A stretch of DNA of 64,000 nucleotides, taken from assembly GCA_965207735.1 (NCBI GenBank), contig OZ242296.1, positions 3,904,001 to 3,968,000 of the forward strand, given 5' to 3'. Shown here one piece after another: positions 40,426 to 63,330 of the stretch. The notes under the pieces were generated by a model, which ran no database searches, was not told the DNA's origin, and saw only the letters and a list, made by a program, of their open reading frames with translations. This DNA is from Candidatus Versatilivorator sp. GTDB taxonomy: Bacteria > Acidobacteriota > Terriglobia > Versatilivoradales > Versatilivoraceae. Position 1 is the first letter of the stretch, and each line of letters begins with the position of its first letter. The position numbers and the translations under genes were made by a program.

Positions 40426-41765
40426 CTAATGGTCCATACAACACGCCTCAACTAAGTTCCCCCGCACTTTGCCGTCTTTGATAAGGCTCGCTTCCAACTG
40501 GTCGCAGATCGCCATTAGCTCATCCAGTTTGGCGATAATGCGGTGTTGCTCGGCGAGGGGTGGAAGAGGAAACACATAGGCTGCGAGGCCCTTGCCGGTG
40601 AAATGTTTGATACCGGTTCCGGTGAAATACTCGGCCAAACGTCCGTCATCGGCACTCGCCCGGAGCGCCCTCACAAAATAATCGCTAGCTACGAGGTTCA
40701 CAAAACGAACACGATGAATCGCTTTCTGAAAGTAGATATCGGTTTCGCGGGTGTCCCACACCGCCGCTCGACCAGGCTCGCCTCCCTCGCATATCAACAC
40801 ATCGCCGAATCGAAGCGCGAACTCTGGAAGCTCCGAATCTTCGAATCGCATCTCCAGCAGGTTGGATAGATCGAAGTCGAACCATCTCACGTTGATGTTG
40901 CGGAGATATTTGTGAGGCGTTCCTTTGTTTTTGGACTTGTCGAGCATCTTACCGAGGCGGGAGTCAGCTACCGCGCCCACCTTCACCCAAGTCCACGATT
41001 CGGGAAGCTCAAATGAGCCAGTGCGTAGAACAGGAATCTTTTTGCGCTTCAGCAATTGCGACGCCGGCTCATCGTTTGGGTCCTGCGGCACCAGTTTGCC
41101 GCGTACAGCCAAGTTAAGGATGGTCTGGCGCAGGGCCTTGATCTGGTCGGGACGGGTGGTGATCGGACCAAGGCTGTTGACGGCAAAGGTGACATCATGC
41201 CGGAATGTCGCCGGGTCGGGGTCAGGTGCGTTGAGGCGAGCGAGGCTTGCCGTCGCCAGCCGATCCCGCGTCGCCTCCCGGTCAGCCCGCGCTGCCTCCA
41301 GCCGGTCGCAGAGCGCCATCAGTTCTTCGACTTTGGCGACGATGCGGTGTTGTTCGGCAAGGGGTGGGAGCATCACCGGAATTTCTAGCGCTTTGGCTTG
41401 GTTAAGCTTTGACCTCGTTGCACCAACCACTCGCCCTGAGTAATCAAAGACATTCAAATAGTGGACCAAGTACGCGTTGGAAACGAGGACACCGCGAAAG
41501 ACATGGGCATGGTTATTCACCCAAGACGTGCCAGCGATCAGATAGGCTTTAGGCCGTAGGGAATCGAAAAAAGGTACGCCGTCTTCGCCGAGTAGTACAA
41601 GCTCCTCATCGAAAATGTATTCGTCGATCCAACCTTGCTGTTGTGTCGCACCAAAGTATGGAAACAGTTGTGAATGGGACTTCCCCGCAATCCTCCGTTT
41701 GCGCTCAGTTCCGTTTACGGGCTTTCGCATGTAGTCCAAACACACAGCAACCAGTCCGAGTCTAG
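40426..41765 (-). pseudogene. hsdS: Type I RM specificity subunit, C-terminal fragment
   Basis: Two PPLAEQHRI repeats, LAVRGKLVPQDPNDEPAS; joins in frame to 45921-46191. Confidence 0.9.
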
Positions 41766-43345
41766 GAGTCTGCGCCGCAGGACGATTTCGGAAAGTTCAA
41801 GAGCGAGAGGCTACTGCGCAAGGCCGGTTCCAAGGAGTGCTTGGGAGCCACTTGGGCGTTGATAGAGTCTCAAGCGTCCTGTGGGCTCCCACAATGGGCG
41901 GTTGAGGACCTCCGTGGCCCTGGGTATTGGGTGGAAATCCCTTGCTTCAGGCCGCCATCAACGCACTCATCCTCTTGATGTTGAGGGCCAGACACACCAA
42001 GTCCCACTCCCCCTGCACTGATTGCAAGCCCCGCAGACTGAACCGTCGGAATCCCAGCCCCTCCTTGATCCACCCATGAGGGGCTTCGGCAATCCACTTC
42101 CTCCGCCGATACTCCACCTGACCGGCTAGGCTGGCCAGCTTCTTCCTCATACGACTCTTGGCCGGATGCTTCCTGGGATCGATCTCTACCGCCCGCTTCC
42201 CCTCGCGCCCCAGCGCAACATAACCGTCCACTCCTCTCTCTTCCAGGGCCTGCAAGTCCTCCTCATTGCAGTAGCCCGCATCCGCCAGCACCTGTTTCGG
42301 TATCTCCTGGAAGCTCTCCTCCACCTCCTCCAGCAACTCCATCATCTGCCCCTGATCGCTCGCCTGCGCCGTTACCTCGGTGGCCACAATGATCTGGTGC
42401 TCTCCGTCCACCGCCACCTGCGCGTTGTAGCATTGCTGGAACCCCTCGGTGGAAGTCTTCATGATCCGGCTTTCCGGATCGGTGAAATTACTCTGCGCCT
42501 TCTCCTCCGGTTCTCCGTAGGCCCGCTTGTAGGGCCGTCGTGCTTTCGGGTTGCGGTCCTGTCCCGGTTTGCGCCCCCGCTCCTCATCGGCCTCCCGCTG
42601 GGCCGCCTCCAGCCGCTGCTTGGCCGCCTCGATCGCCGCCAGCCGGTCCTCCCGCCGCCGCAACTCCTCGGGCAACTCATCCCCACGCCGGTCTTCCCCG
42701 TACCGCTCATCTTCCTCCCGGTCCTCCCGCCGCGCCTTCTTCAACAACTCATGGATCTCTGCCTTCAGTTGCCGCTCCCGCTCCTTCATCCGACCATAGC
42801 TCATCGCCTTGCGCCGGCTCGCGTTCGCCCGCACCTTCGTCCCGTCGATCCCCAATCGCCCCAACCCCACCATCCCCATCTCCCGCGCCAAGCTCACCAC
42901 CTGTACGAACAGCTGCTTGAAGTCCTTCAAATGCCGGCGGCGAAACTCGCACAACGTCCGATGCTGCGGAAAGTTCCCCGCCGCCAGCATCCGAAACGCC
43001 ACGTCTTCCTCCAGCTTCCTCGCGATCTTGCGCGACGAGAACACCCCTGTCGCATAGGCGTAAATCAACACCTTCACCATCATCCGCGGCTCGTAGGGCG
43101 AGTTGCGCCTCCCGTCCTCTTCATAGGGCCGGTAAAACGCTCTCAACTCCAGCCCATCCACCAACTCACTCACCTGATGGGCCAAGTGCCCTTCCGGTAC
43201 CCACTCCCCCAGGTCCGGCGGCAACATCAACAGTTGCTTCGGCTGATACGGGCGAAACCTTGTCCCCATCCACCACCTCCTATGATGTCTCTAAGCCCGT
43301 TATTGTATCATTCAGCCCTGCCCGGGTTTTCTGCGGCGCAGACTC
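41766..43345 (-). mobile_element. IS1182 family element
   Basis: IR GAGTCTGCGCCGCAG; CTAG on both sides. Confidence 0.88.
41947..43269 (-). CDS. IS1182 family transposase
   Basis: YEPRMMVKVLIYAY, IDGTKVRANAS, TDPESRIM, LADAGY. Confidence 0.92.
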   Translation of the reverse strand: MGTRFRPYQPKQLLMLPPDLGEWVPEGHLAHQVSELVDGLELRAFYRPYEEDGRRNSPYEPRMMVKVLIYAYATGVFSSRKIARKLEEDVAFRMLAAGNFPQHRTLCEFRRRHLKDFKQLFVQVVSLAREMGMVGLGRLGIDGTKVRANASRRKAMSYGRMKERERQLKAEIHELLKKARREDREEDERYGEDRRGDELPEELRRREDRLAAIEAAKQRLEAAQREADEERGRKPGQDRNPKARRPYKRAYGEPEEKAQSNFTDPESRIMKTSTEGFQQCYNAQVAVDGEHQIIVATEVTAQASDQGQMMELLEEVEESFQEIPKQVLADAGYCNEEDLQALEERGVDGYVALGREGKRAVEIDPRKHPAKSRMRKKLASLAGQVEYRRRKWIAEAPHGWIKEGLGFRRFSLRGLQSVQGEWDLVCLALNIKRMSALMAA

Positions 43346-43362
43346 CTAGCCCGCATTTCTCA

Positions 43363-44231
43363 GTGCGCCATGGAAAGGCGCCTTCTTCCAACGGGTGCGA
43401 AACCCGTCCAACAACTGTCGCTCCGGTTGGTAGCAGCCAGGGCGGATCATGGAGGTAACGATATGGTCTGAAGCCCTCTGGTGTCAAAGGGCCGCTTAAG
43501 GCGGTTCAGCGAGCATGCGGGCCGGAACGCGAGTGAACGTCGAGCAGGCCTCGAAACGGGCAATGCGGGGGCCGACCCACCTGAGAAATGGGGAAGGCCG
43601 AAGACGGAGGGGGAAGCGAGCGACGCGGGCACCCCTTTGGACCCGCCGGGGTAGTGGCGCTGGCACGCATGGAAGGGGAAGAAGGCAGCAACATGGGAAG
43701 CCCTGTGGGTGGTGAGGCACGCACCGAACCGGAAGCTCGCGAGAGTCAGTCTAGGCCGACAGGGTGGCGGAGAGGCCTGTAGTACCGGAGAAGCCGGGTA
43801 ATACCGGTGGAGGGAAGGGGCCTCAGGTGAGGAGCGGTGACCGAAGGGGGAAGGGTCCCGGGAGTGGCGAAAGCCTGAAACCCCGACCAAAAAAGGGCCG
43901 GAGACTCCGGAAGCATCACATGCAAAAGTGAAAGGGTCGTCGGAGGAGGACGGCGTCGTCAGGGCATCAACAGGCCTGGCGGCAACCCGGGAGCGGAAGT
44001 GGATGGAGTGGGGGACGGGTGCCAATCCCATAGGAGTCGTCCACGGATGCGAGCGGGGACCTGTGTGCGAGACGCATGATCCCACTGGAGAGCCGAGATG
44101 CGGGAAAACCGCACGTCCGGTTCGGAGAGCGGGGACTGGAAACGTGATAAGGGAGCCGGACTGAGGCCCGAAGCGAAAGCGACGGAATAGCCACCGGACC
44201 CTATAGTCAACGCGCCAGTCCTCGACTCTAC
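43363..44231 (+). ncRNA. ORF-less group II intron (869 nt)
   Basis: 5' GTGCG; domain V GAGCCGAGATGCGGGAAAACCGCACGTCCGGTTC near 44090; long domain VI ending CTCGACTCTAC; no RT ORF. Confidence 0.9.
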
Positions 44232-44453
44232 CCAGAGTTCGCACAGGAGCGGTAAAAGGGGCCATGGAGGCATTTGAGGCCGAGTTTAACAACGTTGGTG
44301 GCTGGATCGGTAGGCAAAGGCCAACAGCGGAGGCTTCTGAGGCTCTCCGAGGAACCTCAGGCGGCATTTTCCCTCGAAAACAGCGACACCTCTGCCATCG
44401 GGCCTGGTGGCCGCGTCTTCAAGGGCCAGGAGTGACGGTCGGGTCAGGGCACC

Positions 44454-45821
44454 TCAGGGCGGCAGGTGAGCCCAAGCGATGCGGAACTCCCTCTGGTAAG
44501 GACATCCGGAAGCCATGGCGACCTTGATGCGACGGACCGAGATGGTGACCTGAGCGCCGATCTTGAGCAGTTTGAGTCTGATGGAACCGACGGTGGCCCG
44601 GGCCAGGCAGGTGGATTGCAGCGCCCGCCGGCGCAAGCCCTCCACCAGCACATAGGCGAAAGAGGTCATCAGGAGCCGGAGCTGATTCGCCCGGAAGGAG
44701 TGGGTGGAGGTGCGATCGGCAAACAGGTCGAGTTGCTGCTCCTTGATGCGGTTTTCCATCTCACCGCGGGCACAGTAGATCTTCTCATAGAGGAACTGGG
44801 CGGGGTAGTCCTGGACCGACAGAGAGGTGACGACGAAGCGGGGGTTGGGGCCGCGGGGCAGGACCTCGGCTTTGGCGACCAGGCGGCGCTCGTGGGACCA
44901 GCTCTTGTGAGTGCGGTAGGAGAGGTCGGTGAAGATCCGGGCGGGCTGCTGTTGCTGGTCTGAGAGGGCCTGGGCCTGAGCCAACTCGGGGGCGATGGCG
45001 TCTTGGAGGCGGGAGTTGCGGGCCAGGCCGAAGAGATAGTCGACCTGATGCTGCTCACACCACCCCATCAGCTCCTCACGGGCAAAGCCGGAGTCGGCCC
45101 GCAGCAGGATCTTGACCTGAGGCCAGACACGCCGTAGGCGGGAGACGATGCGCTGGACCTGCTCCAGAGCGCCGGCGGAGGCATCGATGTTGGCGGGTCT
45201 GAGCAGGGCCGAGAGCAGATGGCGGCCCGAGAAGATGTAGAGGGGCAGGTAGCAGTAGCCTCGGTAGTAGCCGTGGAAGAAGCGGTCCTCTTGTTCCCCG
45301 TGGAGGGGATCGTCAGTGGCGTCGAGGTCGAGGATGATCTCATCGGGGGGTTGGGGATGGGCTTGCAGAAACAGTTTCACCAGGAGGGCTTGCAAGGCCT
45401 CGGGGTCGTGGTCAATCTTGTGGTAGCGGGTGGGGCCTTGGGTGGGGGCGTGTTCGAGTCGGTTGAGGGTGCTCTTGCCTGCCAGGGGAGGCGAGTCGCC
45501 ACGACGGCCTTTCTCTGAAAACAAGGCCATGAGGGGATCGTGACGGAGTTGGTCGTGGTCGATGAGATCCTCGTAGCCGAGGGCGATGCCACGGATGCGC
45601 TGAGCGATGAGGGTGCGCAGGCTGTATTGGGTCCGCTTGGGGTCGCGGTGATCGGTGAAACAGTCGGCCACCTGGTCGGAGAGAGATAAGCCCCGATCCA
45701 CCCGGCGCAACAGCAGGGAGCCGGCATCGGAAGTGATGGGACCGCCGTCGAAATCAGCCACCACGCGGCGGCGGCCGTGGGGTTCAAACTCCAGGGGTTT
45801 GGTGTTACACTGTGTCGGCAT
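44454..45821 (-). CDS. IS1380 family transposase
   Basis: FDGGPITSDAG, LDLDATDD, RADSGF, RGEMENRIKE. Confidence 0.93.
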   Translation of the reverse strand: MPTQCNTKPLEFEPHGRRRVVADFDGGPITSDAGSLLLRRVDRGLSLSDQVADCFTDHRDPKRTQYSLRTLIAQRIRGIALGYEDLIDHDQLRHDPLMALFSEKGRRGDSPPLAGKSTLNRLEHAPTQGPTRYHKIDHDPEALQALLVKLFLQAHPQPPDEIILDLDATDDPLHGEQEDRFFHGYYRGYCYLPLYIFSGRHLLSALLRPANIDASAGALEQVQRIVSRLRRVWPQVKILLRADSGFAREELMGWCEQHQVDYLFGLARNSRLQDAIAPELAQAQALSDQQQQPARIFTDLSYRTHKSWSHERRLVAKAEVLPRGPNPRFVVTSLSVQDYPAQFLYEKIYCARGEMENRIKEQQLDLFADRTSTHSFRANQLRLLMTSFAYVLVEGLRRRALQSTCLARATVGSIRLKLLKIGAQVTISVRRIKVAMASGCPYQREFRIAWAHLPP

Positions 45822-45920
45822 CGGTTCTCCTTTAAGAATCTGGTTAACTCCTTAGACAAGAGTATTTTACCAGATTCCGAGAACCGATGCTTCCTACCTC
45901 TGGTGAGAAATGCGGGCTAG

Positions 45921-46191
45921 TTGGGAACCAGCCACTTGGCAGGTCAACCGCTTGCTGTGTTTCCTTAAGCCGGGCCACGGGCTTTTGCTTCCCAATCTCC
46001 CCCGCCTTCACCAACCGCGCTTTCTCTGCCGTGATTCGCTTCAGCAGTTCCGAGGCCGGTTCATCGTTCGGGTCCTGTGGCAGCAGTTTGCCGCGTACCG
46101 CCAGGTCGAGAATGAAGCGGCGCAGGCGATGAACGGATTCGGGAGACTGAATCAGTCGATCGAAATCATCGAAAAGAAAGTCGATACTCAT
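45921..46191 (-). pseudogene. hsdS: Type I RM specificity subunit, N-terminal fragment
   Basis: LRRFILDLAVRGKLLPQDPNDEPAS..LPSGW, cut at CTAG. Confidence 0.88.
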
Positions 46192-46238: not shown

Positions 46239-46595
46239 TTATTCTTCGGGCGGACCCAGTTCGGCAAGCAGGGTTTGCGCGATTTGGCGCAGTTGCGGCA
46301 GGTGGTTTTTGGCGTCGTCCCATACAGGTTCGGGGTTAACGCTGGAATAGCCGTGGATCAGCAGGTTGCGGAAGTCGATTACCTTGCGTTTCCGAGGCAC
46401 CCGTTCGGCAAGTTCGGGGTTGGATGGGCTCAGAATGTTCAGTGCTTCGCCAATGATTTCGAACTTCCGTTCGACGGCCGCTTGGGTACGGGAATCACTC
46501 GCGTAGGCCGCTTGATCCATACCCTCTGTGAAGCGCTTAATGGCCTCGCCCGCTTGTTCGACGTCCGCCAGCAAGACGCGAGGATCAGGATGCAT
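46239..46595 (-). CDS. HEPN/DUF86 RNase toxin (HepT-like)
   Basis: AVERKFEIIGEA, RNLLIHGY (RxxxxH). Confidence 0.9.
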   Translation of the reverse strand: MHPDPRVLLADVEQAGEAIKRFTEGMDQAAYASDSRTQAAVERKFEIIGEALNILSPSNPELAERVPRKRKVIDFRNLLIHGYSSVNPEPVWDDAKNHLPQLRQIAQTLLAELGPPEE

Positions 46596-46896
46596 AGACA
46601 AGTTCGCGGGATTTGTTGATGGCGGTGCGGAGGTAAAGGCTGTTGATGGCAGCGGTTTCGACGAGGTCGACGCGACGGCCCAGGGCCGTTTTCAAGGCTT
46701 CGGCGAAGTCGAAGAATTGATCGAAGGGCGACAGGTCGCTTTCGGGTTCGAATTCGACCAGGAAATCTGCGTCACTTGTTTGTGGATCGAAGTCCGTGCC
46801 GCGCGCGGCTGAGCCGAAGACTTCGAGGCGCGCCACGTGGTATTGGCGGCAGAGTTCAATCAGCCTGGCCTTTTTGTCGGCGATGGCGGTGTGCAT
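46585..46896 (-). CDS. Minimal nucleotidyltransferase antitoxin (MntA-like)
   Basis: VFGSAARG, SDADFLV, VDLV. Confidence 0.9.
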   Translation of the reverse strand: MHTAIADKKARLIELCRQYHVARLEVFGSAARGTDFDPQTSDADFLVEFEPESDLSPFDQFFDFAEALKTALGRRVDLVETAAINSLYLRTAINKSRELVYAS

Positions 46897-62274: not shown

Positions 62275-63330
62275 CTTGCCTGATACAAAGGAAAAAAGAC
62301 AAAGGGAAAAAGAGCTATCCACGAAGACACACGAAGAACGACGAAGGGCCACTAAGGCGTTGAGGTGAACCGCGACGGGATACCAAGGTCGCGAAAGGAT
62401 TATCGATTTCTGATAGTTTCACTCTCGAATGATCCGCCCGGCAGGGAAGGGGCCGGACTGTTTTGTAATTGATAATCCCCGGGCGAACGCCCGGGCGACC
62501 CATTGAGCCGCGGAGCGGCGGCAGCAGGTAGCCGTGGGCGTAAGCCCATGGAAAGGGGTAGCTCCACGTCGAGCCGCGAAGGCGGCGACAGCAGAGGGCC
62601 GAAAGCGCGAGGCCCCGGAGACCGGCTCTCCTGAGACAAAAGAAAAAGAGGAATCCACGAAGGGCCACGAAGAACGACGAAGGACCACTAAGGCGTTGAG
62701 GTGAACCGCAACGGGATACCAAGGTCGCGAAGGGATAGCCGATTTCTGATTGTTTCACTCTCGAATGATCCGCACACCAGGGAAGGGGCCGGACTTACCT
62801 GAGAATATGCTGCTTTAGCCGGCTTCCTTGAGAGCGGCGAAGCCGCGGCAGCACTTAGCCGTGGGCGTCAGCCCATGGGAAACGTCGCCTATGGGTTCGA
62901 GCCGCGTAGGCGGCGGTAGCAAATGCCGGTGAGCCCAAGTGAAGCACAAGCCGACGCAATGATGTTAATTTGAAACAACGCCTTGTGCCGGGTGGCGGAA
63001 AATCCGTTCAAAGTCCAGCATCGTCAGACGGCTAATTTACATGGATGGACAGGATTATTGGGCGAGAGTTTCCACCGTCTTGAGTTCAACCATCGCCTCT
63101 GTTCCAACACGGATTTCCCAGAACCCGCTCCCGGGCTCTTGGATCACTTCCAACACCCACCCGATCATCAAGCGGGTCTGCTTCTGTGGCACAGCCTCTC
63201 GTGCCGTTTGTCCTGTTTATCCTGTGCATCCATGTTCAATAAGTAGAAAACCGGTCTTGCACGACATGGCCCTTGTTCTCGACAGGCCATGAAGATTCGT
63301 TGTTTCACTCTCGCATGATCCGCACGCGGG
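62275..63330 (-). repeat. Second array of units with IS110-type ends, interleaved with REP-like hairpins
   Basis: Left ends near 62415-62460, 62750-62806, 63299-63325; two 183 bp-type units; AGCCGTGGGCGT(A/C)AGCCCATGG near 62530 and 62857. Confidence 0.75.

Follow-up and report, generated by a model that had tools for sequence, protein, structure and literature searches.

The stretch of 64,000 nucleotides analysed here (the window) contains an intron that encodes no RT and lies inside a terminal inverted repeat (IR) of an insertion element, which raises the question of how such an intron reaches its sites and multiplies there. The host is an IS1380-family element, as judged from an intact transposase of 455 aa (44454-45821, minus strand; NF033539 with 410.6 bits at a cut-off of 180), terminal IRs and a short target duplication. 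Its other end carries an IR (45898-45916, minus strand) next to a CTAG duplication (45917-45920), and this IR is, as a preliminary description had stated, an empty copy of the target; it is likely empty because it lies on the strand that the intron disfavours (see below). The occupied IR adjoins an IS1182-family element (41762-43349, minus strand; NF033551 above cut-off), whose flanks show CTAG at both ends. Together the two elements break a type I hsdS gene at a single CTAG, and its 5′ part (45921-46191, minus strand) and 3′ part (40426-41765, minus strand; Methylase_S) add up to one frame of 536 aa. The preliminary description suggested that the intron locks the hsdS knockout. We found no support for this, since IS1182 sits at the same CTAG and breaks hsdS as well, the intron is antisense to the hsdS, IS1380 and IS1182 genes, and the other 27 copies in the genome are located elsewhere; the copy in the hsdS region is one insertion among many. 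Within the 3′ part of hsdS an open frame of 439 aa with a GTG start is kept (40426-41745). An MNT/HepT-like toxin-antitoxin pair is encoded between hsdM and hsdS (46239-46896), and two Acido-Lenti-1 RNA matches were detected at 62506-62878.

The intron comprises 869 nt (43363-44231, plus strand), begins with GTGCG and ends with CTAC. Rfam models confirmed its description as a group II intron (RF02003, the D1-D4 model, with 80.8 bits; RF00029, the D5-D6 model, with 41.2 bits), its ends are identical in 28 genomic copies, and it is collinear with the reference intron Ni.ha.I1. Hallmarks of group II introns are the GUGYG 5′ end, the AY 3′ end, a D5 with catalytic triad and a D6 with bulged A. Specifically, D5 (44090-44123, plus strand) was recognized by Rfam, sequence and fold and has an AGC triad, a 5-nt loop and, in its lower helix, an extra bulged A at 44096, while D6 (44126-44231, plus strand, including the intron 3′ end) has its predicted branch-point A bulged at 44225 in the D5-D6 fold (z = -5.8). 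The extra bulged A of D5 is common to the ORF-less copies of targets A and C and to one of target B (the target families are described below), whereas the ORF-less copies of genomes G004 and G048 lack it, as do the RT introns of the genome that the window comes from. The motif alpha (GTCGCTC, 43417-43423, plus strand) is complementary to alpha′ (GAGCGAC, 43618-43624), which lies in a stem-loop after the EBS1 hairpin, in DId3. A stem-loop alpha′ in DId3 and a 5-nt D5 loop are given as IIE/IIF traits in PMC3753933, and the intron shows both; the IIB-like traits EBS2 and EBS3 are also present, and we describe the intron as class F/g3-like with IIE/IIF-type RNA features. D4 was rightly said to be too short for an RT: it spans about 250 nt (approximately 43830-44085, plus strand), holds frameshifted remnants of the N- and C-termini of an RT, and revealed no conserved sense frame when searched for a passenger peptide.

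The genome (5.26 Mb) encodes 28 full ORF-less copies with identities of at least 99.6%, 22 of them identical. The preliminary description had asked whether other copies share the same IR. All 28 do, with the insertion between IR positions 13 and 14, the exact 13-mer upstream in 27 and a 3′ exon beginning with CC in every case; none occupies an unrelated site. The hosts are 19 MITEs (130-243 bp, with the same IR), six IS1380 elements and three other IR-like ends. Parasitism of the IR is thus borne out, but the emphasis on IS1380 ends has to be shifted, since most hosts are the short MITEs; only 7 of 42 classified IS1380 ends are occupied. Within the genus the IR-intron junction was present in 4 of 14 genomes. 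Three degenerate sites were also seen in the same genome. One MITE end (G000:C1:572744-572986) consists of IR, GTGCGCC and the remaining MITE, and is likely the scar of an intron loss via deletion between GCC microhomologies. A 19-nt stub of the intron 5′ end lies in an IR-like site (G000:C1:331238, minus strand), and an internally deleted intron of 117 nt with both ends kept lies in a C-type palindrome (G000:C1:4261108, minus strand).

The 5′ exon is the outer 13 bp of the IS1380 IR (43350-43362, plus strand) at the 3′ end of the transposase gene, with IBS1 at 43357-43362 and IBS2 at about 43349-43353, and the 3′ exon is the inner part of the IR (44232-44237, plus strand) with C44232 as IBS3. 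The junction reads CCCGCATTTCTCA|CCAGAG, so that the IR is split exactly at 13|14, as first described. For an assessment of how the target is read, D1 was aligned for 77 distinct intron-exon pairs, which form 41 clusters at 97% and come from the window genome and others; tandem copies were left out, as were loci whose 5′ end had not been mapped. EBS1 is TGAGAA in the loop of the distal D1 hairpin (43582-43587, plus strand; intron positions 220-225), within the loop proposed before (43582-43588). It covaries with exon positions -1 to -6, with a mean of 4.48 of 6 Watson-Crick pairs versus 2.22 after permutation (27 distinct segments; p = 0.0002, the permutation p values here and below ignoring relatedness among the introns). 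EBS2 was found elsewhere than first proposed, with a core GGGC at 43558-43561 (intron positions 196-199) plus C43557 (feature 43557-43561, plus strand), opposite exon positions -11 to -14 (-10). It forms 2.21 of 4 pairs versus 1.26 permuted (19 distinct segments; p = 0.0002), or 2.95 versus 1.86 when a register shift of one position is allowed; its partners are the first bases of the IR and, from the CTAG target duplication, the last one, and Ni.ha.I1, read by eye, shows complementarity at the same position. The earlier candidate for EBS2, ATGCGGGC (43515-43522), was rejected. It is identical in 59 of 77 relatives regardless of target, forms 3.00 of 8 pairs versus 3.14 permuted (p = 0.80), and is paired in the fold with CGCATG at 43666-43671 as the 5′ strand of a conserved D1 stem (43514-43522, plus strand). 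Another stretch complementary to the exon, AATGCGGG (43563-43570), was likewise dismissed as a targeting element because in families B and C its counterpart and a strand downstream of it change together, the behaviour expected of a stem. Because EBS2 lies at 43558-43561 (with C43557), the intron reads positions -1 to -6 and about -10 to -14 and not 14 contiguous bases, as had been claimed. EBS3, overlooked in the preliminary description, is G43654 (plus strand; intron position 292), which pairs with +1 in each of the 33 clusters whose 3′ exon is known and is replaced by A where +1 is T.

On the favoured strand of the window genome we looked for a bias of the C199 intron towards G at -14 and saw none (20 of 53 G sites versus 5 of 10 A sites occupied). 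Across genomes an A at -14 occurs with 5 of 5 T199 copies and with 11 of 42 C199 copies (p = 0.003 in a Fisher test on counts made by eye, with all five T199 copies from G011). An IR variant ending in CTCG, with G at -1, is occupied in none of 13 cases, and in none of 8 on the favoured strand (window genome), and is a possible escape variant. Sister introns with EBS1 TGTTAA (L150:9356 in G009; L029-L042) insert at the same position of a related IS1380 end whose IR has diverged (CCCATCTTTAACA), as if the intron tracked the divergence of the IR; the window genome has 24 empty sites of this diverged type.

The distribution of the copies over the two strands is strongly uneven. The origin was placed by dnaA at 3.54 Mb, in agreement with a local minimum of the cumulative GC skew, whose maximum lies at 0.73 Mb. 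On this basis the lagging-template orientation is found for 25 of 29 occupied sites (the 28 ORF-less copies and one A-type RT copy), versus 40 of 116 empty perfect sites (odds ratio 11.9, p = 4.9e-7). Calling the strand from the local skew gave 24 of 29 on the favoured strand (p = 1.9e-6), and an origin at the global skew minimum (4.5 Mb) a weaker bias (23 of 29, p = 5e-5). Four of the 29 insertions are off-strand; of these, one lies close to the terminus and another where the skew is reversed. The GC skew is reversed over G000:C1:4.0-4.5 Mb, which suggests an inversion of this segment. A bias towards the lagging-strand template has been described as a signature of endonuclease-minus introns (PMC4615759). 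The 145 matched sites, filled and empty, offer natural data on occupancy from which the targeting rules of this class may be worked out.

The hosts are also diverse. Both ends are used (four and three for the IS, 12 and seven for the MITEs), 39 of 40 MITE sequences are distinct, and each of two intron SNPs, C806A and C433T, is shared by two different hosts or ends. Double occupancy was not seen in any of 63 paired elements of the window genome; in G011 a 242-bp MITE (L147) shows it, with introns that differ in their EBS2 variant. Since 25 of 29 insertions are on the lagging-strand template in such diverse hosts, the copies appear to have homed independently. Independent retrohoming fits these data, and riding along with the host is not needed, though possible in single cases.

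The preliminary description proposed mobilization in trans and called for a search for RT-encoding relatives; 15 of these, all endonuclease-less, were found in the window genome, which together with the 28 copies in one IR supports a non-autonomous parasite of these ends that is probably moved in trans. The relatives fall into three target families. A single A-type RT intron, with the same EBS1 as the window intron, lies within a diverged IS1380 IR. B-type RT introns (13 copies, one frameshifted) lie in another repeat, whose motif has 169 matches in the genome, nine of them filled by introns; several IS1380 copies are also inserted there. One C-type RT intron lies in a palindrome that also holds an ORF-less copy of 866 nt and the 117-nt remnant. 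The A-type protein, a candidate helper, has 456 aa, matches TIGR04416 above cut-off and shows only the RT and maturase domains in Pfam, with no En domain. Its nearest relatives are from records of Ca. Versatilivorator (Acidobacteriota), and those sequencing runs whose label could be read are sponge metagenomes. The candidate helper RT shares 45% identity with that of Ni.ha.I1 (variety g3), 34% with g2 and 30% with g1; among the four references compared pairwise, variety g3 is thus the nearest, and the RT may be class F/g3-like.

Our analysis also revealed that the ORF-less introns share one type of 3′ half and have three different 5′ targeting halves, one each for targets A, B and C. In the D5-D6 tree the 16 ORF-less-type rows (one of them an interrupted copy), which cover all three targets, fall into one clade (99/97) that is separate from the resident RT introns, and in the D1 tree the ORF-less rows group with those RT introns that share their target. 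Placing all ORF-less D1 sequences in one clade was rejected (p-AU 2.5e-5; 15 rows versus 11, with 7 divergent or interrupted rows left out). Over positions 1-405 the ORF-less copy of target C and the C-type RT intron share 98-99% identity, but over the last 175 they share 70%, and there the ORF-less copy is 98% identical to the window intron; generally, ORF-less introns and resident RT introns share 76-88% over positions 405-470 (D3) and 67-70% over the last 175. In a scan of informative sites, agreement with the RT donor gives way to agreement with the ORF-less lineage at 398-411 in the C copy (54:3, then 4:37), at 394-407 in G008, at 331-343 in G004 and at 456-462 in the window type. For the latter this places a putative crossover between an A-type-RT-like 5′ half and the shared ORF-less 3′ half at 43818-43824 (plus strand; intron positions 427-462 with another outgroup). 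By our reading of the fold the intervals would lie near domain linkers. The ORF-less lineage thus appears to have swapped its targeting 5′ half with RT relatives, and both recombination between DNA copies and template switching by the RT are possible routes. Three B-target ORF-less copies occupy different sites in G004, and a swapped form therefore appears to have spread.

Taken together, we consider it quite likely that the ORF-less intron, with its 28 near-identical copies in an IR common to IS1380 and MITEs, multiplies through separate events of reverse splicing, with the lagging-strand template as target and an RT borrowed from resident relatives, and that its lineage has been retargeted by recombining in their 5′ half. 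The boundaries, the target, the covariation of EBS1, EBS2 and EBS3, the strand bias, the diversity of the hosts and the mosaic pattern are evident from the sequences themselves. From the pattern in the sequences we infer that the intron RNA would splice and then reverse-splice into the IR at 13|14 on the lagging-strand template, that the nascent lagging strand would prime the copying, that a resident RT-encoding relative would supply the RT, and that a new target would be gained when the targeting 5′ half of an RT intron is recombined onto the ORF-less 3′ half.

Several other explanations have to be weighed against this one. The intron might be a passenger that spreads when an IS1380 element or MITE transposes with it lodged in the end, an alternative already considered in the preliminary description. 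Four identical composites of IS1380 and intron, occupied at the same end and each with its own target duplication, are in line with this, as are the one identical pair of intron-bearing MITEs and the outer 13 bp of the IR, which stay intact. ISEcp1, of the IS1380 family, tolerates degenerate right ends, and we counted this for the passenger as well. We nevertheless regard passenger spread as improbable: the IS shows no preferred orientation (by local skew, the G-rich strand carries 10 of 22 left ends) while the intron does, both ends are used, the hosts are mostly distinct, and lineages defined by SNPs cross hosts. Gene conversion between repeats at the DNA level, in place of an RNA route, is less probable still. 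It would account for the over-occupied sites flanked by the left end of IS1182, where upstream homology is long (7 of 7 on the favoured strand versus 18 of 58 elsewhere, p = 7e-4), but the hosts downstream of those seven sites differ, two perfect IS1182-flanked sites on the other strand are empty, and neither strand bias nor EBS covariation is predicted by it. A benefit for the host cell, in which the intron disables IS1380 ends and here fixes the hsdS knockout, seems unlikely, although a little less so than a passenger. The inner IR is indeed displaced by 869 bp, on the favoured strand the intron fills 25 of 65 perfect sites, and control of IS elements has been proposed for RmInt1 in a review (PMC5894124); on the other hand most IS1380 ends are empty, hsdS is broken by IS1182 in any case, and the pattern can be explained without selection on the host.

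The mosaic might also have arisen without any exchange of modules, either by separate ORF deletions in each RT family or by divergence after one deletion as in T. elongatus, and PMC2882425 offers precedent for both routes. Separate deletions do occur in the clade, since the ORF-less introns L071, L112 and L114 (719-723 nt) have unrelated D4 sequences (33-34% identity). For the lineage studied here, separate deletions would predict a D5-D6 like that of the RT parent, where we see the 67-70% given above versus 97-98% among ORF-less copies, divergence after one deletion would predict the single D1 clade that was rejected, and the crossovers fall into different intervals (331-343, 394-411 and 456-462). 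This reading, about as improbable as the passenger, is largely refuted.

The proposed retargeting through exchange of the 5′ half, and the probable homing into IRs with a borrowed RT, can be compared to known systems. RmInt2 of Sinorhizobium meliloti GR4 is a class D intron with its own RT, found in seven copies, all in ISRm17 inverted repeats; it is endonuclease-minus, has a lagging-strand bias and targets both ISRm17 ends, and one target is therefore always on the lagging template (PMC4615759, PMC5894124). Judged from these reports, the window intron resembles it in that all copies lie in IS-type inverted repeats with both ends in use, a lagging-template bias and an endonuclease-minus system, and differs from it in being F/g3-like, ORF-less, present in 28 copies mostly in MITEs, and mosaic. 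By analogy it would work like an ORF-less RmInt2, yet it is not class D, as it encodes no RT and has IIE/IIF RNA traits. The second system is TeI3 of Thermosynechococcus elongatus, for which PMC2882425 reports ORF-less introns mobilized in trans and a family, F4, in an IS200 element. Shared with TeI3 are an ORF deletion that left remnants of the N- and C-termini, numerous near-identical copies that lie at sites matched by the EBS and outnumber resident RT relatives, and insertion in an IS; trans-mobilization was shown there. In TeI3, as described in that paper, each EBS family is a clade of its own after one deletion and the RT has an endonuclease, whereas the D1 and D5-D6 trees conflict here and the candidate helpers lack an endonuclease. 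With Ni.ha.I1 and the former class F, or variety g3 (PMC3552965, PMC3753933), the window intron shares a collinear RNA, the alpha′ stem-loop and the 5-nt D5 loop, and it differs from them, as far as those papers describe them, in the missing ORF, the extra bulged A in D5 and the IR target.

Both an intron that homes into the inverted repeats of an IS (RmInt2) and ORF-less introns that are mobile (TeI3) have thus been published before, and an intron moved in trans that homes into IS ends is the union of two known behaviours. What appears to be new, and is the part worth following, is the mosaic, that is, one ORF-less 3′ half with three targeting 5′ halves that each match the RT intron of the same target (by the AU test above). 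Our search of mostly open-access literature, including parts of PMC2504315 and PMC8643678, found no report of natural chimeric or mosaic group II introns with such a swap; by title or abstract we found no paper on a group II intron homing into IS1380 or its inverted repeats, and for group II introns in MITEs only a plant review. If the mosaic holds, a non-autonomous intron could gain a new specificity in one step by taking D1-D2 of its helper, which would explain how such parasites escape saturation of their targets and would make target choice separable from RT use in the poorly studied F/g3-like class. We lean slightly towards a wider reading, in which a single ORF-less chassis (D4-D6) would persist across the genus as a modular hyperparasite, repeatedly capturing the target-reading 5′ half of a resident autonomous intron, following it onto a new repeat family and multiplying there, a natural retargeting by capture of whole modules. 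IS1380 ends would then be a landing pad common to the intron and IS1182. Eleven of the 13 IS1182 copies in the window genome touch an IS1380 or MITE IR on at least one side, nine of them by the same end, while 96 of 1718 CTAG sites are adjacent to an IR (enrichment p = 2e-9), and by this distribution we take the IS1182 copies to be end-seeking. A search for an outward promoter in IS1182 and IS1380 revealed none; the one sigma70-like site lies within D1 in antisense orientation.

Three RNA libraries, each from a different study (X1, X5 and X7; 24 runs listed), yielded contigs that cover the D4 specific for the ORF-less introns, with strain differences, and also the RT ORF. These contigs stem from related organisms and their depth cannot be ranked, so that the introns may be transcribed there; a splice or lariat joint was sought in them and not seen. 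Finally, related introns also occur in head-to-tail tandem arrays (L056, L057, L066-L068, L071 and L077), and the array at L071 mixes ORF-less copies of 719 nt with RT copies.
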